Shown here piece by piece: positions 15,977-58,392 of a stretch of DNA of 64,000 nucleotides. A program made the translations under genes and the position numbers. Within the stretch, counting starts at the first letter, position 1. Each line of letters starts with the position of its first letter. The notes under the pieces are model-generated. The model was not told where the DNA came from. It searched no databases and was given only the letters and a program-made list of their open reading frames with translations. This stretch comes from Octopus vulgaris (Eukaryota), in assembly GCA_951406725.2 (NCBI GenBank), contig OX597820.1, positions 34,286,001-34,350,000 of the forward strand, given 5' to 3'.

Positions 15977-16356
15977 GAACACACACATTTGTATACATAC
16001 ATAAACATGCGTACAGGCACATACATGGGAGGCAGAATTAAATTCCCTTTCAAAGAAAAGAAAAAGAACAACAAATTTCAAATATTTTTCTTTTACAACT
16101 TTGCTGCTGTGCTGCAAATATTCAGTGTCAGATTACATTAATTGAAGTTCTGCAACAATAATACTGCCCTGATTACATAGTCTGTACCTGGCTTCATTTA
16201 ATACATTTCAATAAGGGTTCTTTAGAGAATCAACAATGTGATGAACAATTTAGAAATTTTTTTTTTAGGAAAAAAGAAAAAAATGAAAGAATCAAAGATA
16301 ATCCAATATGCACCCCACCCTTTGTTCAAATATATATATGTAAGTATGTGTATATA

Positions 16357-16402
<46 letters not shown>

Positions 16403-16720
16403 TGTCATTGGAGTTTATAGATGAAAGTATGTAGGGAATTTTTCACAAGGAATGTTAGCATCTCACTTGAGGATTGAAACTGGCTCACTGTCTTTATTCA
16501 ATGAGGTCTTACAGCCAATTTTACAGCGCACGCATGCACCCCCACCCTCCACATGTACGGATATATATACATTCTTGTATGAAATGTTTTATTCGTATTT
16601 CCAGTATGGGATGTGGACATAGTATATTTCATACATAAATTATGTTAATGTTGACATTTCTGAGATTCCATGATGGAGCTGCATGGAGAAACCAACCATA
16701 CAAGATCTTTGTAGAATATT

Positions 16721-18364
16721 CTAGAGTTGACTGATTCTGCTGTCTGACGGTACTACTGAAGGTAACATTGACTGAGTTTCTTTCAGAGCAGTGTCTTTGT
16801 CAGCTCCGAGGCAGCACTGGCTGAGCATAGTACGAAAGGCTTTGTAAACTGTGGCATCTGTGAAAATAACTGTAAGGGGGAAGATAACTGTTGAGAGACC
16901 AGATAGAGCTGTGGTACAGATGAGGCTGTTGATGTAAGAATCCACAGAAATGAGACTACGAATGGCCTCTGTTAGATAGACTGGCATTATAGAAACAAGG
17001 AAGCTGATGAGCAAGATGACGCAGGTCTTGTAACACTGGGTCATGCTTACGTTATGGATCTCCTTGCTGATTGATGGGTGTGATTCTTCTTCCACCACTG
17101 ATTCAACCGTGATTCGTGGTGGTGCAGAAGACTTTTTGCCAATTGATTTAAATGATGTTGATGCTTCCTCGATGCTGGACGGTGTCCGAATACTTGGCTG
17201 TTGAAATGGATTTGGTGGCAGATCTTCAGCAGATTTGAATGATGATATACTGCTATGGCTTTTTGGATCTTCCAATTGGGCCTGCAATGCTGCGATATCT
17301 ACCGAAAACTTCCGGACATATTGATATCCTTGCGCCTGGGTCTGGTGGTCTGTGTAGCCATTGTCACCAATTTCTCCAAATTGGCAGATTGTGTGCCGCC
17401 TTCGACCGAACATTTGCAGGAATGCTCCTGAATTAAAGCTGAAGCTATTCTTCTTATGTGTTTGTGGATCACCTTGTGTCACTCCTGATGGATTATTGCT
17501 TACAAGTAACTGGTTTGGAGGATGGGAATTTTTTCGCAATGGTTTTGATTTCAGCTCTTTGTACTCGCCACCAGAATCACTTGGAGTCAACGTAGGCAGG
17601 GTTATGGAGTGTTCGGATGTGGAAGCTACAGAGTTTGCTCTGGGTTTTTCTATTGTCTTCTGTTTGAGTTTTACTGCCAGAAACAGAAGGCATTTAATGA
17701 GCAATAAGCCAATTAATATGGTAAGCACCAGGATCTTCATAAGGTAAGACTTACTATTGAGGATGTGATAAAATGATTGGCTGTCTGCAGATAGTTCGTA
17801 TGAATATGATAGCACACCATACAAAATACCAACAGCAAATCCTATGCTTAAAACCAATGGAAGCCCAATATAAACTAAGAACTTTCGACAGGCTTTTGAG
17901 CAACCATATTCACTCAGTAAGAACCAAAGAGCTATCAAAAACAACAGTCCAGCCTTGGTTGCAATTAAGAGTAGAAATAATGAATGTGTTGTCTCCTTCA
18001 TAGACAGGAACAATGTGTTACCATTATGATACATCAGTAGACAAATGATCTCCAATGGTGACCATATCACATTGAAAATGATGGCAATTATGAGGAGCGT
18101 AGCTAGCAGAATGTAGTAGTGATCCTTTATCAGACGGCCAATGGCCAATGTTGTAATTACAACACTACTGCTGAGGAATCCAACCACCGCTGTGAAAGCC
18201 AAAGCAAACATCGAGACAATTAAAGAATGTGCCCGAAATACCTGTGCTGCTCTTTCACTGTTTTCTCCCATGCTGTCATTAAATGTGGAAAGTATGGTGA
18301 CTGTAAGCATTTCTGGGAGACTGCCATTGCTTGGCACAGATTCCGATTCCTCGTTCATGTTCAT
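16721..18364 (-). CDS. Orphan seven-transmembrane (rhodopsin-like GPCR fold) protein with very long third intracellular loop
   Basis: 547-aa high-complexity uninterrupted ORF. N-terminal sequons (NGS, NDS), five hydrophobic helices at about aa 47-230 and a ~210-aa polar loop are followed by two more helices with Pro in TM6 (SIMP) and TM7 (IFP). A helix-8-like VYKAFRTML, a CC pair and a C-terminal -SQL follow. Confidence 0.9.
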   Translation of the reverse strand: MNMNEESESVPSNGSLPEMLTVTILSTFNDSMGENSERAAQVFRAHSLIVSMFALAFTAVVGFLSSSVVITTLAIGRLIKDHYYILLATLLIIAIIFNVIWSPLEIICLLMYHNGNTLFLSMKETTHSLFLLLIATKAGLLFLIALWFLLSEYGCSKACRKFLVYIGLPLVLSIGFAVGILYGVLSYSYELSADSQSFYHILNSKSYLMKILVLTILIGLLLIKCLLFLAVKLKQKTIEKPRANSVASTSEHSITLPTLTPSDSGGEYKELKSKPLRKNSHPPNQLLVSNNPSGVTQGDPQTHKKNSFSFNSGAFLQMFGRRRHTICQFGEIGDNGYTDHQTQAQGYQYVRKFSVDIAALQAQLEDPKSHSSISSFKSAEDLPPNPFQQPSIRTPSSIEEASTSFKSIGKKSSAPPRITVESVVEEESHPSISKEIHNVSMTQCYKTCVILLISFLVSIMPVYLTEAIRSLISVDSYINSLICTTALSGLSTVIFPLTVIFTDATVYKAFRTMLSQCCLGADKDTALKETQSMLPSVVPSDSRISQL

Positions 18365-19165
18365 TGTTCTTATGTTATCGTGTTTCTAGAAATACAGATA
18401 GCGATACATCTATTTTCCTTTTTTTTTTTTTTGCGAATATGTATATAATATCCGTGTTTGTTTCTCTCTCTCTTGATATATATATAGATATATTTATATA
18501 TACATATATTGATGAATATGTATAGATTTTTTCTGTACACACTGTATTTATATATAGGAATATGAATGTATATGTAAGCAAACAGATTCACATTTCTCTG
18601 TATCTGACCATCTTCAGATATTTCAGAAATACTTCAGAGTAGGTCCTGTATAGTTATTGGCTGTTACAATTTCCATTTCATACAAAATTTTCCATTAAAA
18701 TTATTTTGTTTTCTTTATATTTATTATTTTAACCATTTTCTTGAAATGTAGCATTCTGGGAAAAACTTAATGTGTTTGTTGATTGGTTGATAATATTCTG
18801 GGGAGGAGAGTGGGATGTTATCTGTGAGTTTGTGTCACTTGTCTTCCTTTTTTTCCTCAAATATATTTCTCAGATTTTTGGGTTATTTTTTGTGTCCTGC
18901 CGTTTTACAATCAAATATTTATCCTGTCATTGGTTATTGATGAATTATATACATATATATTGTTTTATTTCCATCTCTTTATCCAATTTCTTCTTTCTTT
19001 TCATTGCGAATTTTCAAAAAAAAAAAAAAAGGAAAGGATAAAAAAGTGTATATCCTTGATCAATCTTGGCTGTTGTTTTCAGAGAAGTCCTGAGTTTAAT
19101 TGAGTTCAGTGTTGTCAGAAATCTGAAAATAACAATATTAGAATAATGATAAAAATACATAAGTA

Positions 19166-24630: not shown

Positions 24631-26182
24631 TATATATATATATATATATGTAAATATATATATATGTAAATATACATATGTCTGTGTATCATAGTTTTAA
24701 TATCCACTTTTCTATGCTTGCATGAGTTGGGCAGATTTTCTACTGCCAGATGTCCTTTCTTTTGCCAACCCCACTCATTTTTTAAAGCAGTATAATGTTT
24801 CTCTGATGGTTAGGTGTGCTTGTGCAGAATATTGGAAATAAGTGACAGTGACTGTATAACAGCTACAATCATTTACTACTATGTCAAAGTAAGGAGAGAG
24901 AGAGAGAGTGAGACACATACACACATACATTTCCTGGCCATCTAATAGTTCTGCCAGTCCCTGGATTTGTACTTTTTTTTCATGAACCCTGAAGGGATGA
25001 AAGGAGAAGTTGATGTTGGCAGGATTTGAACTCAGGACATAGTGAGTTGGTGCAGATATTGCTATGTGTTCTATCCAATGTGCTAATGACTCTGTTAGTT
25101 CATCAGCCTGGATTTGGATTAACAGCAGAACAGTAGCGGCTTGTCTATAGGTGCTGTGGAACTACAGCACCGTCTATTTCCACTTGATATTGTTGATAAC
25201 ATTCACTATAATGAGTCCTTTTTTTCTTTAATTCTTACTTGTACATTATATAATCCTTAAGCTTAATGTCAGTAGCCATCCCCTAGTTTATGAAAAATAC
25301 AAAAATCCTTGTATAGAACCGTGTCCTTCACAGTCCCAGTGACACGGTGTTGTGCACATGCTCACATGTTTGAGATAGGAAGCTTCATACTACAGGGAGA
25401 GAGCACTGTGTGAATGACAGTACTGACTTTTGTGTTCAAGTGAAAGGTAGTGTTTCTTTTTGATTCCACATGTGTTGCGCTTAAAAATGTATTTATATTC
25501 TTGAATGTGATAAAGTGTAGAATGAGACTATTATCCCTGCTTCCAGCTTCAGTGTTACTGTCAGGATTTGAAAAAATAGGGCACCCCTCACAATTTAGGG
25601 GGTGGTTTTGAAAAACAAGGGAGAATTCGCAGTGGTGTTTGGTGAACAAATTAAACACACTACCCAGCAGTGGCTAAAATGCGAACCAATCACGTTTATG
25701 TATAAATTTTCTTTTTATATGTTTGTTTCCTTTTACACAATATTAAAACAATGGCTAAACATTTTCTGAAGCAGCACACCCCACTAATTTTATCTACAAG
25801 CCCATACTGCAACAGAATGATAGTTTCTGAGGTATACTTTCTTAAAATGAACACACTAGCATAGAGGATAGGATTGAAAGAAAAAAGGCTGGATCTAAAC
25901 TTGCAAAGGTAGTTGGGCTCTAGCCATGAAATGTGGCAGTATAAACCAAACCAATGCAAATGATGGGATTGAAATAATAAACATGATTGGGCCAAATCTA
26001 AAAAATGGTTATGGGCCTAAACTAGCAGCAAAGGTGATACTGTAAATGACACCCACAAAGTTGATGGAATCAAAATACTAAACATTGATGCACATGTAAA
26101 ATACATTGTGGGCCCCAAACAGTAAGGATAGTAAGAACAACAGTCAAGGTTTGTAAATACCAAACTACAATCTAGTAAAGGT

Positions 26183-26510
26183 CAAGGAGCACTCTGTCGG
26201 TTACAACGATGAAGGTCCTGGCTGATATGATCAACGGAACAGCTTGCTCGTGAAATTAACATGCAAGTGACTGAGTATTCCAAAGACATGTGTACCCTTA
26301 ACGTAGTTCTCAGGGAGATTCAGTGTGACACAAAGTATGACAAGGCTGGCCCTTTGAAATACAGATGCTACTTATTTTTGCCAGCTGAGTGGACTGGAGC
26401 AACGTGAAATAAAGTGTCTTGCTCAAGGACACAACATGTCGCCAGGAATTGAACTCACGACCTTACAACCATGAGCCAAATGTCCTAACCACTAAGCCAC
26501 GCACCTTCAC
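26183..26510 (-). mobile_element. tRNA-derived SINE, family E
   Basis: Minus strand reads ggtgcgtggcttagtggttagg...gagttcaattcc...ccttgagcaagacac; related to 60711-61165 and 59975-60200. Confidence 0.85.
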
Positions 26511-39175: not shown

Positions 39176-40587
39176 CACATGCACAAAGTCCTTAGCTGGG
39201 AGTCATTAGAACATTGGATGGAATATTTTGTGCTGTTGGTTCTGACTCTCTATGCTCTGAGTTCAGTCCTTGCCAAGGTCAGGTGTGCTCTTTGTTGTTT
39301 CTGGTATGATAAACTACCTGTCCTATACTGGAGTGGCTCCCTCTTCTCTATCTCTTTCTCACTCACGCACACAACATCATTATCATCAATGTTTTATGCT
39401 GGCATGGTTTCAGGCATCTTGACAGAATCTGATCAATCCAAGGGTTGCATTATACCCCAATATTTGCTTTATCATGGTTTCTATAGCTGTATACCTTTCC
39501 TAATGTCAGCCAATTTACAGAAATTTCTAGGTGTCATTTTCCCCTTTTTGTGGCACCAGCACTAGTGAGGTAGCCAAACAGCTTGCAAGACTAAAATCTC
39601 TTTCAATTGAGTAACACTACAGTAGAGAGGGAGGTGGATCTTTGCTAAGAGATGAGAAAAGGTGCTAGAAGAGGAAGGTATTTTCCTGTAAAGGAGTTAC
39701 ATGGCTAATCACATTATACAAGAGAGGATGGGAGTGACTGAGATAGAGTGGGAAAGAGAAGTGTGAAAAGATGTTGGAGTGGACCCTCAGGATACAAATT
39801 TAGTAGAAGTGGGGATAGGAAAAGTTAATATTGCTGGCTGGTTGAGGTTGTAAGAGTACATGGGTGAGTGAGAGATTGGGGATGTGCTAGAGGGTGAATA
39901 TAATAGGTGTTGAGGAATGATAAGTAAGGAAGGTAGGGTAGAGTAGGTGAAAACTGTAAAAATTTGTTTGGGTTGATGGATAGAGATGGATGGTGGATTA
40001 GGGGTGGGATGACCAATAATTTTTCTCTGTGAAAATAATTGGCTGTGGCTGTGTGCCATTCTGGAGAGAAATGAGTTCCACCAGATTTCAAAATGGCTCA
40101 AAATATTACTTTTTTTCATGACAGCGTCACTATGGTTCTCTCAGGTGTTGAGAGTACTGCAACATGCACACCTTCCTGCACACAGGTCAGATGCTAGATA
40201 CTAACTTTGTTCATCATTTTTTTTGTGTTTGGAAAATTAAGATGGTGGAGGTGTTGCTATTGTTTAACCCCAGGTTGACCCTTATCAAACAGGCCTTCAA
40301 GCCATGACCGGCTCATCTTATTTCTAAGGAGTAAAAATGTATTCAGCTTCACATTATCTAGCATCATTTGTTTAAATTGAAACTGAGCTTGGCACAATAA
40401 TTGAGAAGCACTGCTGTACATAGTTGCTCAAGCTGCTAGAAATAACAGTCAAATCTCTCTAAAAGATAAGCAGCAGGACACCATTGGTAAACTCTTACAT
40501 TTTTCTGTACAGTAGCCCCATGGGAATGCATCTGTTCACCACTCCTGAAACAGCTGGTATCACAAGAATTGTAATTAATTACATTAA

Positions 40588-40809
40588 CCCTTTTGATACC
40601 AACCCGGCTGAAACTGCCTCTGGCTCTGTAGTACAAATGTCTTGTTTTCATAAGTTTTGAATTAAAATCTTCCACCAAACCTTAGTCACAATTTATGTTC
40701 CTAGCACCAGCTTAATGGTAACTAAGTTATTTTATTAAATTCTTTGTTATATTTAAAATTAATTGAAAGAAACACAGAGCATCTCAAAATAAATACAGTA
40801 ACAAAAGGG
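40588..40809. mobile_element. piggyBac-type MITE
   Basis: TTAA|cccttttgatac ... gtaacaaaaggg|TTAA. Confidence 0.85.
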
Positions 40810-42541
40810 TTAATTTTGAAGGAAGTTTGAAACTCTATGATGTAAGGGAGCAAGTTCTAATCCCTTCCTCTGTGCTTCATTTCTGTTCTTTGATAGAATC
40901 ATTACAAGACTGTACTTTTGACCAAAAAGATCTTGAACAGGACGTTAAAAGTTAACTGAAGAGCAATAAAAGAAAAGTGAGCTGTTACAGCTGGGATATC
41001 CTTGCCCCATGATCATTCATTTTTTTTTATTAGAACTGATGCAAAGCTAAATAATCTGCTCCTCCAAGATTCTGTTGCATTTATGGTAATTCCAGTCACC
41101 ACTTCCACTGCCACCAATGCCACCATGGAAACAATGATAAAATCCCTACATAGTCACTAGCCCTGCTAAAAACTGCAGCTAAATCTCCCTCAGATTACAC
41201 ACTAATAAAAGGACATGTTAATCAATGAAGCTCTAGATATATTGTGTTTGAAAAAGAGTAGATGGGATGGTCATGCCTGTAATGTCTATAATCAACTATA
41301 GACATACTCAATTAGGGCTGACAACAACAACAACAACAACAACTCTCTGGAAAACCAGAAGTTCCATGCCATTCTGCCTGTCTGTTTGTCTTGTACATAG
41401 ACATAAACATGTTGAATGCAGGGCTTATATCAGAAGTGTGTGTGTGTGTGTGTTGAATGTGTATATATGTGTTTATGCTTTCTTCTGTGTATGTGTATCT
41501 GGAACAATTGCTTGGACAAGATAGACTGGCTGCATGAAGCCTTTAGATTTGGTTTTGTAATGTTGGTTACCACACACACACACACACACAGGTGCATGTA
41601 AAATCACATGGGAAAATTATGCCATCTGGTTTATGAGATTTTCACTGTGTGTTCTGTAATAACCAGAATCCTCATTCTATCTATCCATAATGACCATTAT
41701 CCCTACTAACCTCTTTCCAGTCCCCTGCCCTCATCTCTCTCTCTCTTTCTCTACTTGTCTCTTACTCTTTATAGCTCTCTCTCTCTCTTCATCTGAATAT
41801 GTATCTCTTTTGCTTTCTGTCTCTTCCCATCAACCTGTGTATGTATCTTTTTCTCTCTCTATCCCTTCTTTTCTCTCTAAGTGTGTGTGTATGGTTGTGT
41901 ATTTGTATCTCTTTCTCTCTCCTTTATCTGTGTATGATGGTGGTGGTGGTGGGGGGCAGTATGTGTCCTCCTCTCTCTCAGTCTTTATGTTTCTCTTTCT
42001 TTCTCTTGCACTTTAACACTCTCCTCTCCCTCTCTGCCTTTAACATTCCACTTTCCTCTTCCCTCTCTCCCCCTTTTCCATCCTATATGATTCTTCTCTC
42101 TCTCTCTCTGTAAAATTCCTTCTTCTTTTCTCTCTATGTTTGGTGTCTGTCTCTCAATATCTCTCCCTTTTTCCATTCCTTCCCAATCTCACTCATCTCT
42201 TCCCCTCTCTCTCACTGTAACACCCCCTCTCTATCTTACTTCTCTCTTTCTAATGTACCCCACCTTTTCTATGTCTTTCTGTCTGTCTGTATTCATATTT
42301 CTCCCCTTCACTTCTATCTCATTTCTCACTCTCTTTCTCTAATGCTCCCTTCTCCTTCTTTCTCTCTCTCATCACCTTCACACTGAGGGATGGATGGATG
42401 GAGGGAGGGAGGGAGGCACTATTACAGTAATATCTCTGTGTACATCTCAATGTCTTGTATTGATGTGTCCACTAAAAACAAGTTAGGATTGCAGTTGATA
42501 ATTGCACACCACAGTCCACTCTACTGGCAGCAACATAGCAA

Positions 42542-51127: not shown

Positions 51128-52027
51128 ATATATATATCGTGTGTGTGTGTGTGTGTGTGTATATATGCATACAAACACACATATACACACATTGCCATTT
51201 AACATCCATTTTTCCATGCTTGTATCACTCAGACTGTGTATGTTGAAGCAGATTTTCTATGTCACTCGTTTCCAAAGAAGGTAATATATTCCTGTAAATG
51301 GCCAGGTTTACATGGAAGATGTGATGCAACTGACACAGCTTGTATGACAGTCACGCTCGTTTACAGCTAACATGCAGTGTTCAACATGAAGACACATACA
51401 CACACTCATGCATACACAACTAACTTTCAGTTTATGTCTATCAAATCCACCCACTAGAACCCACTCGCTCAAGGTGTAACTAAACCCAAAACCACATAGA
51501 TGGCAAGCCAACTTCTTAAACATGCTGAGGCACTGCCAACCATGTTGCTACATCTTCATTAATCTTCCTTTAAGGGTTGGCATTTGGTGAATGAGGGTGT
51601 TTGATGCTGCTGTCCCTCATTTAGTTTTGAAGACATGTATATCTATCACATATAGGTCTCTCAGCTCCTTCAGGAGGATATTGGAAAGCCATGGGCCCTT
51701 GAATCTCAAGGGCCCACTGTATCTTACCCTATATTTTGACAGCAGGGAGGGAGGGATTTAGGGCACTATGCAATGGTACCCTATTCTGGCTTTTACTCGT
51801 TGTTTTTATGTCAAGCTTTACATAAAAAAAAAAAAACATTTTGCATTAAACTGGACTGTTTAATTTTTTTTTAAAGAGTACACGCTTATTTAACTTTTAA
51901 AAGGTAAAGGTTGACAGGGACTTTGAAGTTTCTGTGTGCTCACATTTGTCAGAGGCTCGTTTAACTTCAAAGTTACTGTCAAACTTTTCATTGTAGAAGT
52001 TCAATATACACACAGAGTCACATATTT

Positions 52028-53605
<1,578 letters not shown>

Positions 53606-55283
53606 GTGTGTGTTACATTCAATTGCAATATATTCTTACGTTCATTTTGCTGGTGTGAGTATATGCATGGTAAATGTCTACAGTTGTACTCAAACATACA
53701 CACAGAGCCATTTTTGTGTATGGATATTGTGTACAAACACATGCATACAATTGTACATGTTCACACATACACACAGACAATTTTTAATGTGTTTACATCA
53801 CGTTTCAGAGGATTTATAATCCAATGCTAATCCCAGCTGTAGATAATCCAGTTTTCAATGACATGTATCATTATCATCATCATCATCACACCACCATCAC
53901 CATAAACACTATCATCATTATGACCATAATCTTTATCATCAATACCACCACCACTACACCACCACCACTACACCACCATCGTCGTCGTCGTCCTAAGATT
54001 AGTATTTAATGGTGATGATGATTTAGTGGAAACAAAAGAGGATTCCTTAACACCACTGCTCCCCATTAGTTTCATTTCAAGGATTAAAAACTTTAGTTAA
54101 GGGGATTTGATTGAGGAAAGCCTCATCTCTTCTTCCTTTTTCTCCTTGTTCCTACTCTCCCCTGCTGACACCCCCACCCCCACCCCATCTCTCAAAATTA
54201 CCTCACTTCCACAAATCCTCCCTGCCCCTTTCTCCACAGTTCTCAGTCTTTCCTCCCTTTTTGTCATTCGATCTGTCCCCCCCACCCCCAACTTTCCTGC
54301 TTCTCTCTCTCCTTTCTCTCTACAATCTCTATTTTTCTGCATCTTCCTCTGCCTCTCTTTATCTCTTTCTCCCTGCTTCCTCTCCTGTTTTTCTCTCTAT
54401 TGTTTATCTCTCTTTCCTCTTACTTAACTCCCTCTCTCTCTCTCTCTCTCTCATTCTCTTTCTCTTCCTACTTCCCCTTGTATTATTTGATGTCAGCCAT
54501 TGCATCACCTAATTGGTGGTGGCATTGAAGAGGGCAAAGTGGCCAGGGTGCAGTGTGGGTTGTGATAATCATGGAGTGTGGGTGCACTCATTATGGTCAG
54601 TGGGTTCGGCAGGATTGATGTGGGGTGCTGGGGTGGATGTGAAGGTGGTTGACCATTGGGTGCAGCAATTAAGGGTGTGGATCCTTGCTATTTATAACAG
54701 TCACTAACACCACCTATTCCTCTATTAATACCACTACCACCACTACCAATGACATTGGCATTGTGGCCATTACTACTACTACCACTATCATCATTATATA
54801 TTATCGATAATATCCTCGCCATCACCACCACCACCATCATCATCATCACTATAGACATTGGTATTACTGCCAGAACTACCACCACCACTCCTATTGATGT
54901 TTGTGTCATCACTGCCACCGTCACTACCATCATTATCACAACATCCACCAATATCATCATCACCATCAGTGTCACTATCATTGCCATCATCACAATCACT
55001 AACACCACCACCACAATTATCATCTTAAGGTTGCTTCCATATAGTCTTTCAATCTGCTAGAGACAGCAGGTATATATGCATGAATGTATCTCTGTGTGCA
55101 TGTGTGTGTGTACATTACTGTATGTGTGTATAACACAGATATGTTTGTGTATGTGCATGTGTGTGTATATATATTATGTATATGCACACACATGCATGTG
55201 TATGCACTTTCTCATGTATGTGTGTGTATGTGAATCCAATTTTTTTCAGGTTGTCCACATATATGTGTGTGTATGCATATATA

Positions 55284-55327
<44 letters not shown>

Positions 55328-55811
55328 CATACATACATACAAACATATATTTAGTGCAGTGTGTGTTGCAGTATGCGTATGAATGTATGTTTGTATATAT
55401 GTGCACTCACACACTCCCAGAACCCTGGCTTTACAACATACAGTCTTAAATATGTGCCATGTTTGTTAATCTGATGTTGTCCAGTTAAGCATAAATCTAC
55501 CATGGTAAGGATTACGATTATATCGCTGTCTGCACTGACCTTGTTTATGAGATAGCCTGTGGAGAAGGACTATGCAAGTTCAAACTGAGATCACAGCTTG
55601 CCGAGATTATCTGCGATTATGTCTGCATGTGTTTAAGAGTGACATAGTTGTGAGAAAGTTTACAGTCGTAAACTGCTGGATCGCCACAACCCTTATCTGA
55701 ATATTTCTACTACCTCTTACTATATGGCAGTATAATATGTTACACTATGTTATTCTGTAATAATTCTACTGAGTTCTGCTGTTCTGCAATTTACTCTATT
55801 TTTCCAATGTA

Positions 55812-56702
55812 TTGAGTCATCCCATAAAAAATACGGGTTTTTTAATTGCTTGAATTAAAAGTCGGAGGGGGACAGGATAAACTACCTGCATCAACTTGCT
55901 ATAAAAGCAGGTAGTAATTTTACCTTGTCCTTATTCTTTGTGCAAGTTTTGAAGAGTGCAGTTTGATGTTAACAGTTATTTTTTTTAGAGCATATTTGGC
56001 ATATTTTGCTTTATGAGTTCAATAAAAGCAACAATAAAAGTGTGTGTAATATTAATGCAGTGTATGGGAACCGGACAATAAGCATAAGCCTGTGTCAACG
56101 GTGGTTCCAGAAATTCTGAGCTTGGAACTACAGCCTAGAAGACAAGCCTCATTCTGGAAGATCTGTAGAGCTCAATTAGGATGTCCTGCAAATCCTCGTA
56201 GAACAAAATCCCATTGTAACTGTCGTGGCCCTAGCAGAGAAGCTTGGATTTGGTTATTCAACCATTCATTGACACCTGCATGCTATCGGAAAATGACCAT
56301 CTTTGGTTTCAAGACGAAAGGTGTTCTTCCATAAGGATAATGCTTGCCCACATACAGCAAGGATGACATTCCAAAGGCTGGAGCAGTTTGAATGGGAAAC
56401 AATGTCCCATCCACCATATTTGCCAGACATTGCCCCATCTGATTATCATTTATTCCACAGTTTTCAAAATCATCAGGATAGAAAAAATATGAATTCTGTT
56501 GACGAGGTCTGAACAGTACTGGAGGAATATTTTTCATCACAGACAAGTGAATTTTGGAGGAGGAGCCTGCAAGTCTACCAGATAGATGGAATATCATTAT
56601 AGAAAATGAAGGAGAGTATATTTTAGATTAAAAAAGAACTTTATCTTAATTTTGAAAAATAAATGAAGTGTAAAAAACTGCATTATTTATGGGATGACCC
56701 AA
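55812..56702 (+). mobile_element. Mariner element, internally deleted, with both TIRs and TA TSD
   Basis: TA|ttgagtcatcccataaaaaatacgg ... ctgcattatttatgggatgacccaa|TA. ORF 56303-56512 contains FFHKDNACPHT...HPPYLPDIAPSDYHLF, the mariner D34D-type motifs. Confidence 0.92.
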
Positions 56703-58392
56703 TATATTTGGATTGAATATTCAGTTGTTTGATTGAAACTAAACTAACAGGCCTGGTTCATTGAATTGGTACATTAGTGGCTGAGTATTCAACAAACATG
56801 TGTACTATTAGCACATTTTGTTACCATATTTCCGTTGAAATATGTTACCTTTGCTTAATTAATTTTGAGAATAATGAAGAATTTATTGAAATAACTTTTC
56901 TCATTATTATTGAACTGAAATTTTGAAGAAAGATTTTTAGATCACTATAAAACATGAAGATTGTCTCATAGAAGCAGGAGAGCTCACAGGCAGGTTGGCA
57001 TAATTCAATTAGTATTTTAGTAGCTTGGTAACCTTTTGTTACCATATTTTTGTTGAAATACACTTTTGGACAGAATATTGGAGTGTCAGGAAAAATGCTC
57101 AGCAGTGTTTCTTCGAACTCTTTATGTTCTGAGTTCAAATGCCACCAAGGTTAACTTTGCCTTTCATCCTTAATAAAATATGTATCATTTGAAGGGGGGG
57201 ATGTGGGGAATGTAATTGACTTCCCTAATAATTATCAGCCTTGTGCTAACATTTAAAACCATTAATTATGGAGAATATCTCACCTATTCAGAAGGACAGG
57301 TGAAACTATTGATAAATTTCTCACCAACAGATTTAGCACTTGAAGTTGAATTATCTAATTATTGCTAATAATTTGTAAATGCAAGGCAGCGAGGTGGCAG
57401 AATTGTTACCATGCTGGAAAAAGTGCTTTGTGGCATTTTATTATGATTTTATGTTCTGTGTTCAAATTCCGCCAAGATCGATTTTTGCCTTTCATCCTTT
57501 TGGGGTTGATAAAATAAGTGCCAGTTAAATGCTGGAGTTGATGTAATAATTGATTTACTCCCTCCCCTGAAATTGCTGGCCTGGTGCCAAAATTTGAAGC
57601 CAATCTTATAAGGCAGTAAACTGGCAGAAATGTCAGGGGCAGGGTCAGTAAAATAAGTAGCAGCTGGGCACTGTTGTTGATTTAATAGATTTACTCCTTC
57701 CTCCAAATTGCTGACCTTGTGCCAAAATTTGAAATCAAGAATTCATAAATGTGATAGCACAAGGCAAATGTAAGAAAGGTACTATATTTGGAGGGTCATC
57801 AAAGAATGTCTTCCAAAATTTGCTTTGATTTTCTGTTTTCTGACTCAACTCTGCCTTTTATCTTTTTGGAGGTCAGTGGTAAAAGGCACCAATCTCAGGT
57901 GACAGATATTGGTGGAACTGTTTAGAGAGCTGGGAGAGATGCCTTGAAGTATCTGTTTTGGATTTTGTATTCTAATAGCAATGTACCAATCCCAAAATCA
58001 CAGACTTTCTTTTGGTGAAACATCAGTGGCATGGAGAGGGGTCAAAGACTTGTATGCTTGGGTAACTAGCAATCTTCCTTAAAAAAAAAAAAAAAAAAAA
58101 AACTGGTCCAAGTTCACACATCTACAGATGCATGGCCAACATTGACCACCAGCAGCCATATTAATGTAGTAGTAGCAGTAGTAGTGTAAGCCACTTGTCA
58201 GAACTCTTCTAGATGGAGGAGCACCTTGAAGTGTTTGATAAAACATATGGACCCTGGTACTTATTTTTTTAAAGATTCAGTACTTACTCCATCAGTTTCT
58301 TTTGCTGAACCACAAAGTTATGAGGATGTAAACAAAGTGATACCAGCTGTCAACAGTGGTAGGACACACACATGACAAACTTCTTTCAGTTT

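Follow-up and report, generated by a model that had tools for sequence, protein, structure and literature searches.

Among class A receptors, sequence usually varies most in the third intracellular loop (ICL3), which in the atypical chemokine receptors ACKR1-3 is short. Motif content is a poor predictor of coupling in such proteins, and short linear motifs have weak predictive value. According to the available text of the respective reports, the motif-poor receptor GPR75 adopts an active-like state (bioRxiv 10.1101/2025.07.30.667585), loss of the DRY motif has been linked to constitutive activity (PMC10941346), and ACKR3, which keeps all motifs, shows no G-protein coupling (bioRxiv 10.64898/2026.05.17.725760). 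The long-argued question of whether class A receptors can signal without G proteins is also touched by the octopus protein described here.

As far as the accessible portions of the sources show, the cephalopod GPCR survey PMC6408891 is seeded with Pfam models, and such surveys would likely miss the octopus protein, since it is invisible to Pfam 7tm_1. PMC11886862 uses a topology-based rescue and may contain the family unnamed among its orthogroups; the supplement material obtained for it and for PMC9712504 contained neither the gene identifiers nor the motifs. The full-text literature searched made no mention of LOC115213907, three other gene identifiers or three motif strings; the gene could still be listed in data tables elsewhere or in bioRxiv supplements. 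Neither the family nor the module was found described in the accessible parts of the literature on octopus and cephalopod GPCR repertoires and on PxIxIT sites in GPCR loops.

The reading frame and its genomic setting

The window, i.e. the whole 64-kb stretch of Octopus vulgaris DNA that was analysed, holds a single convincing coding frame, which upon ORF inspection has neither a frameshift nor an internal stop. Its parts are as follows.

16721..18364, minus strand: single ORF of a putative orphan, class A-derived 7TM receptor, 547 aa, ATG to TAG
17651..18232, minus strand: TM1-TM5, residues 45-238; S1.50, A2.50, K3.25 and WFL replacing DRY; P2.59 and E105 (2.61) kept
17078..17650, minus strand: ICL3, about 190 residues (239-429) with 42 Ser/Thr; predicted disordered, pLDDT mostly <60
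17579..17596, minus strand: degenerate second PxIxIT-like site PTLTPS, residues 257-262, located by alignment
17387..17407, minus strand: box 1, GRRRHTI, residues 320-326; T325 in a PKA-type RRxT-hydrophobic site; invariant in 20/20 rows of the molluscan alignment A1
17261..17326, minus strand: box 2, YQYVRKFSVDIAALQAQLEDPK, residues 347-368; RKxS-hydrophobic site at S354, with a short helix predicted after it
17102..17119, minus strand: candidate PxIxIT-like calcineurin docking site PRITVE, residues 416-421; low-pLDDT region preceding TM6
16859..17077, minus strand: TM6-TM7, residues 430-502; F6.44, P6.50 and P7.50 kept; SIMP replaces CWxP and FPLTV replaces NPxxY; pocket residues E466 (6.55) and N479
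16811..16855, minus strand: helix 8, residues 504-518, with CC at its end; AlphaFold model and alignment
16724..16732, minus strand: class I PDZ-binding end -SQL at the C-terminus

A preliminary description, made from the letters alone, had placed an intact ORF amid decayed repeats, and this holds: the 547-aa frame is unbroken, tandem or interspersed repeats make up 36% of the window, and of its repeat-free stretches the one that holds the ORF (16399-18436) is the second longest. No second copy of the ORF was found within the 64-kb window, and an Rfam search of the window gave no match. The second in-frame ATG is codon 3, and N-glycosylation sequons are present at N13 and N29. On the same strand, poly(A)-signal hexamers lie 127-518 bases 3' of the stop (16202-16593) and some 400 bases 5' of the ATG there are two pyrimidine-AG sites resembling acceptors (18756-18798). 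Further long stretches free of self-repeats (40365-42541, 55324-57088 and 24680-26253) have no convincing ORF and could contain small exons or conserved non-coding sequence. An AT-rich microsatellite of about 1.8 kb at 52026-53819 (GC content 14% in 52001-54000) gives rise to several spurious ORFs of 200-575 aa.

Class A fold and descent

The protein has seven hydrophobic peaks, and two AlphaFold models (pTM 0.58 and 0.72) predict seven transmembrane helices, mostly with pLDDT >85, together with helix 8 and a disordered ICL3. The top Foldseek matches of the model are all class A receptors, class A clusters also came up, at 0.93-0.95, in a feature search of the ESM Atlas, and a VIA structure search found class A receptors with Z scores of 25-27 over about 260-308 residues (for example 9p1s; Z 25.6, rmsd 2.7, 260 aligned). 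A channel or other non-GPCR fold, an outcome against which the preliminary description had asked to be checked, was ruled out by these AlphaFold, Foldseek and VIA comparisons. The single sequence does not reveal this relationship: Pfam 7tm_1 (PF00001) gave no match at E values up to 10 with the protein whole or in halves, and the single-sequence matches in Pfam and PDB (YxzE, E 5.8; SLAC1, E 7.8; PIG-Y, E 0.046) were discarded as noise. Its relatives, in contrast, can be linked to class A by profile. The 7tm_1 model matches 4 of 20 relatives and 10 of 26 distant relatives, class A receptors account for 41 of the 42 PDB matches obtained with the molluscan profile, and a profile of the distant relatives finds 5-HT1A (2.5e-20), GPR101 (1e-18), GPR84 (1e-16) and then alpha-1A. 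The molluscan profile A1 and the tier-2 profile A2 align end to end with a probability of 100. Because of the fold matches and the profile homology of its relatives, we place the octopus protein in class A by predicted fold and by descent, yet it fails the motif definition of the class. The label 'atypical GPCR' is therefore apt, the fold and ancestry being those of class A and the switches being gone, and no well-characterised receptor family emerged as its home.

The loss of motifs is as extensive as had been claimed at each helix. Here the helix numbering was transferred by alignment (distant-relative profile to 5-HT1A, and A1 to A2); in TM7 an error of one position is possible. The TM1 sequence GFLSS (residues 62-66) has S66 at 1.50 in place of the GN motif, A94 occupies 2.50 where the LAxxD aspartate would lie, and W147-F148-L149, within IALWFL of TM3, stand at 3.49-3.51 in place of DRY. 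In SIMP (458-461, TM6) and IFPLTV (494-499, TM7) only the prolines of CWxP and NPxxY remain. The conserved disulfide is missing as well: cysteines occur only at positions 108, 155, 159, 225, 327, 444, 448, 483, 517 and 518, with K123 at 3.25 and none in ECL2. W4.50 and P5.50 are also absent. The statement that essentially all class A motifs are lacking nevertheless goes too far, in that it describes the switch motifs correctly but overlooks G1.46, L2.46, P2.59, F6.44, P6.50 and P7.50, all of which are retained. Hence, by alignment, the helix-shaping residues survive while those for activation and coupling are gone. Helix 8, the CC pair (517-518) and the -SQL end were correctly reported as retained. 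The CC pair may be palmitoylated; a CC at this place is found in the 5 cephalopod-type proteins, gastropods, oysters and scallops have Cys further along the tail, and the bivalve rows have no CC pair.

A mollusc-annelid family with stepwise loss of switches

The homology search identified 19 relatives, those with names being from cephalopods, bivalves and gastropods, the closest named one being an Argonauta hians protein with 71% identity. Searching again with A1 in a word-indexed database added nothing new, and a full-library profile search gave 127 matches. A second tier of relatives, 560-810 aa long, has named members among annelids (Dimorphilus and Paralvinella). The 47 weak matches (P0100-P0146, E 3e-8 to 8e-4) were excluded from every count. 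Among 124 proteins examined, 102 match the box 2 pattern and 66 of those are at least 500 aa long. In a tree of the TM regions only (n=64; the full-length P0034 and P0169 left out), the 28 molluscan-tier sequences group together with an SH-aLRT of 87, and within this clade the cephalopod-type, bivalve-anchored and gastropod-anchored sequences each form a subclade (99, 94 and 99, respectively), a pattern as expected of a conserved low-copy orthogroup. Thus, the orthologue search suggested in the preliminary description uncovered intact orthologues in all three classes and clear long-term conservation. Together, the sequences make up an apparently undescribed mollusc-annelid orphan family.

The two tiers differ in which switches they keep; the following counts come from the 66 full-length members, which are filtered by box 2 and mutually related, many of the distant ones having been detected largely via the box. 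C3.25 is present in 0/29 molluscan-tier vs 32/35 tier-2 proteins, R3.50 in 1/29 vs 19/36, D or N at 2.50 in 1/29 vs 31/36 (mostly Asn) and W4.50 in 1/29 vs 19/36, several bivalves having the Trp one column off. N1.50 is found in none of the 5 cephalopod-type proteins, in 10 of the 24 other molluscan-tier proteins and in 32/35 of tier 2. Neither W6.48 nor Y7.53 occurs in any of the 66, while P2.59, P6.50 and P7.50 are kept in all 29 molluscan-tier proteins. On these alignments switch loss is a stepwise trait of the family and not peculiar to the octopus gene. As tier 2 has the canonical residues, the motif-poor molluscan state is probably derived, by parsimony on a tree that has no outgroup. 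Such a natural gradient, with an annelid tier that keeps the disulfide and often R3.50 and cephalopod proteins that keep neither, offers a test of which class A switches G-protein coupling needs. Tier-2 proteins have features of their own in A2: a conserved Cys-rich W-x-C-V-C-Y-C-N-I-G pattern in the tail in place of the PDZ end, an acidic DDDxFDxKM stretch N-terminal of box 1 and, frequently, a further RRGS site that lies between the two boxes.

Two near-invariant boxes in the third intracellular loop

The best-conserved sequence of the protein lies not in the membrane but in ICL3, a feature absent from the preliminary description. Column identity in the 20-row alignment is 1.0 for box 1 and 0.90 for box 2, compared with 0.24-0.51 for the TM helices. 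Box 2, with the family consensus YxYVRK[FW]SVDIxALQxQLExPK, contains the most conserved 20-mer of the alignment (0.92). When the octopus protein is compared with its scallop, zebra mussel and land snail orthologues, box 1 is 100% and box 2 82-86% identical, but identity falls to 19-25% across TM1-5 and to 17-18% in ICL3 outside the boxes. Among 50 further full-length relatives collected with no box filter, 49 have an RR[HFY]T box 1 and 49 have box 2. All 11 additional molluscan-tier full-length matches possess both boxes; as TM1-5 alone would find them (63-224 bits), the box conservation in molluscs is, to judge from these scores, not a search artefact. Several tier-2 proteins were detected via the boxes and have TM-only scores near zero, so that conservation estimates for this tier are inflated. 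The TM bundle has drifted to about 20% identity, yet this motif of 22 residues is near-invariant, an indication of a single conserved partner.

The two candidate phosphosites are separated by a spacer whose length is not fixed (24-64 residues in 100 proteins). Both boxes fit the PKA consensus, which the accessible part of PMC13289941 gives as a basophilic Ser/Thr site with a hydrophobic residue at +1. High-affinity CaMKII interactors, as described in the portion of PMC9336311 available, carry R/K at -8, a hydrophobic residue at -5, R/K at -3 and a hydrophobic residue at +1; box 2 has Y at -5, R at -3 and V at +1, but no conserved basic residue at -8, a K being found at -9 in 23/67 rows. A PKI-like pseudosubstrate was not supported for either box, since Thr or Ser occupies the P site in 67/67 rows each, in rows that were chosen by patterns including those residues. 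An AKAP-type helix binding the PKA regulatory subunit was likewise not supported, the hydrophobic moment of the box 2 helix (355-366) being 0.12 and below the lower quartile (0.15) of ICL3 12-mers. The helix itself (357-364) is predicted with low confidence, with pLDDT values of 43-58 for the core in the two AlphaFold models. The boxes found no usable match in Pfam, PDB or ESM Atlas; searched alone, the ICL3 core gave none in ESM Atlas, and its sole PDB match, a lectin at E 0.16, is attributable to chance.

Other candidate docking motifs

Counted in sequences that are related rather than independent, a PxIxIT pattern occurs in ICL3 of 28/29 molluscan-tier proteins, where it lies ahead of TM6, and of 20/37 tier-2 proteins, compared with about 8 and 8 in shuffled sequences and 5/29 and 7/37 in reversed ones. 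The letters of the site vary while the pattern is kept (PRITVE, PIITLS, PLISLT, PVITVS, PSIVVD), and the molluscan sites resemble the PxIxIT sequence PVITID given for NHE1 in the part of PMC6677818 available. In decoy searches with the first residue of the pattern swapped, R, F and W gave equally high counts, but these hits fall inside the invariant box 2. The pattern of the second, degenerate site is matched in bivalves and gastropods, but not in the 5 cephalopod-type proteins. At the C-terminus, an S/T-x-V/L/I end is present in 28/29 molluscan-tier and 4/37 tier-2 proteins. With the PxIxIT pattern in only 20/37 and the PDZ end in only these 4/37 of tier 2, the full loop and PDZ module is molluscan. 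Two other motifs were tried and dropped: 14-3-3 mode I with Pro (2/20, below the shuffle mean of 3) and LxVP (9/20, with a shuffle maximum of 11 hits). The Dreissena-anchored clade (P0010, P0012, P0013, P0014, P0016 and P0017) has an RVxF-like PP1 docking motif (RVLF/KVLF) at about residue 81 of ICL3, N-terminal of box 1, which the octopus protein does not have.

The putative ligand pocket

In the 28 molluscan-tier proteins of the pocket tally, from which P0034 was left out, E2.61, E/D6.55 and N7.33 are found in 28/28 and Y3.32 in 24/28; an Asp at the helix 8 turn is invariant and W2.57, S7.42, Q7.45 and T7.46 are nearly so. The ECL2 pattern Y-H-x-L-N is also kept. Overall, 21 pocket positions have a mean conservation only marginally higher than that of the TM regions (0.43 vs 0.35, p about 0.07), and 12 positions of the G-protein face are at the TM mean (0.35, p about 0.48). 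Position 3.50 is N, F, S, G or A in molluscs (identity 0.22). The conserved acids E2.61 and E6.55 are suggestive of a real ligand and argue against a pure scaffold, and because they are buried in the membrane such a ligand would probably be basic. A 'pseudo-GPCR', understood as a protein that is ligand-blind or decaying, is not favoured, given pocket polar residues that are invariant across molluscs. The octopod pair departs from near-invariant molluscan residues with His for Tyr at 1.30 (residue 46) and Phe for Tyr at 3.32 (residue 130), and the octopus protein has Ser for Gln at 7.45 (residue 491), hinting at a further change of the pocket in octopods.

Proposed mechanism and alternatives

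We tentatively prefer a ligand-binding, class A-descended receptor whose output would run via a kinase/phosphatase docking loop rather than G proteins. The receptor would be held at a PDZ scaffold via its -SQL end, and a cyclic-nucleotide-dependent kinase, for which PKA is the best fit and PKG or CaMKII are possible, would phosphorylate T325 and S354. Calcineurin docked at PRITVE would reverse the phosphorylation when Ca2+ rises, and the phosphorylation state would gate the binding of an effector to box 2, which is proposed because the 22 conserved residues exceed what a kinase site needs. A 14-3-3 dimer bridging two sites is one candidate for this effector. A ligand, probably basic, may move TM5/TM6 on the retained P6.50/F6.44 hinge and thereby change access to the loop. 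The boxes are present in distant relatives that keep C3.25 and often R3.50; for this reason the loop module would have come first, the G-protein switches then decaying as they became dispensable. The earlier suggestion of a scaffold or of G-protein-independent signalling thus gains real support from the predicted ICL3 phosphosites, the PxIxIT-like site and the PDZ tail. In its most complete form, which we regard as somewhat doubtful, the family would have given up G-protein output in favour of an inbuilt coincidence module for cAMP and Ca2+, in which a class A pocket is combined with an ICL3 bearing two PKA sites, a docking site for calcineurin and an effector-binding helix, and its relatives would preserve steps in the loss of the disulfide, R3.50 and the sodium site.

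It is quite possible, if not what we would expect, that the protein is an ordinary G-protein-coupled orphan with rebuilt, non-canonical and potentially constitutively active switches, in which the boxes only tune desensitisation or trafficking. Its class A fold is intact, helix 8, a long TM6, the hinge prolines and F6.44 are kept as in coupling receptors, conservation of the cytoplasmic face equals the TM average, R3.50 is present in half of the distant relatives, and motif-poor orphans can be active according to the accessible text of PMC10941346 and bioRxiv 10.1101/2025.07.30.667585. However, R3.50, Y7.53 and the late-TM5 Tyr, the active-state network that GPR75 retains as far as that preprint was available, are all missing, the residue at 3.50 changes freely among molluscs, unlike what a substituted switch would show, and the boxes are conserved far above any TM segment. 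The loss of the disulfide and switches together with the docking motifs and PDZ tail would also suit a ligand-free pseudo-receptor, acting as a membrane anchor for a signalling scaffold or as a GPR50-like modulator of heteromers, a role documented for orphans in the part of PMC10941346 available; two buried acids and several polar pocket residues that are invariant or nearly so in molluscs, and the retained ECL2 pattern, make this unlikely.

A kinase site would need less than 22 contiguous conserved residues and a short helix, and the ICL3 core could also fold into the cytoplasmic cavity of the receptor itself, acting as an intrinsic plug or G-protein mimic until phosphorylation frees it. We consider this quite improbable, as both models place the core with no confidence (pLDDT 43-58) and the core is unchanged although identity of the cavity residues is down to about 20%, a sign of a conserved partner outside the receptor. 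A pseudogene, decaying or retro-derived and with its motifs lost by drift, would be in keeping with an intronless ORF in a repeat-rich region and a protein with no Pfam match of its own, but is very unlikely, indeed barely credible, because the orthologues form class-wise clades of a conserved low-copy orthogroup; they are intact in cephalopods, bivalves and gastropods (SH-aLRT 99, 94 and 99), share the same losses and have invariant columns over the whole family.

Comparison with known systems

The docking-loop receptor that we prefer combines traits known from separate systems. With 5-HT1A, GPR101, GPR84, alpha-1A and A2A of the class A alpha-group (PF00001), the octopus protein shares the fold, profile homology, a long ICL3, helix 8 and the prolines 2.59, 6.50 and 7.50; identity in structural alignments is 9-16%, and orthology is established to none of them. 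It differs from this group in having no N1.50, D2.50, disulfide, DRY, W4.50, W6.48 or NPxxY, and in its near-invariant ICL3 boxes. GPR75, as described in the accessible part of bioRxiv 10.1101/2025.07.30.667585, is also a class A orphan with poorly conserved microswitches, a retained P6.50 and a long disordered ICL3. However, GPR75 keeps R3.50, Y5.58 and Y7.53, none of which the octopus protein has, and no sequence link between the two was found. ACKR1-3 likewise have the class A fold, their G-protein output is non-canonical or absent, and DRY and NPxxY are disrupted in ACKR1 and ACKR2 according to the available text of bioRxiv 10.64898/2026.05.17.725760, but they form an unrelated vertebrate subfamily.

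For the loop, the closest parallels are GPR161 with its AKAP helix and Smoothened with its PKI motif, in which, as described in the part of PMC13289941 available, a linear intracellular element wires a 7TM protein directly to PKA. These elements are C-terminal, and the Smoothened pseudosubstrate has Ala at the P site, whereas the candidate elements of the octopus protein lie in ICL3 and have an invariant, phosphorylatable Thr or Ser; the box 2 helix is also not strongly amphipathic, unlike the AKAP helix of GPR161. In AKAP79/150, TRESK and NHE1, according to the accessible portions of PMC4516873 and PMC6677818, PxIxIT is similarly placed in a disordered cytoplasmic region, the octopus candidate being >50 residues from the predicted phosphosites, but none of these is a GPCR, and the octopus PRITVE is a putative docking site. 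Motif-poor orphans and PKA-wired 7TM proteins were thus already known; what sets the present family apart is its inverted conservation and its living gradient of switch loss.
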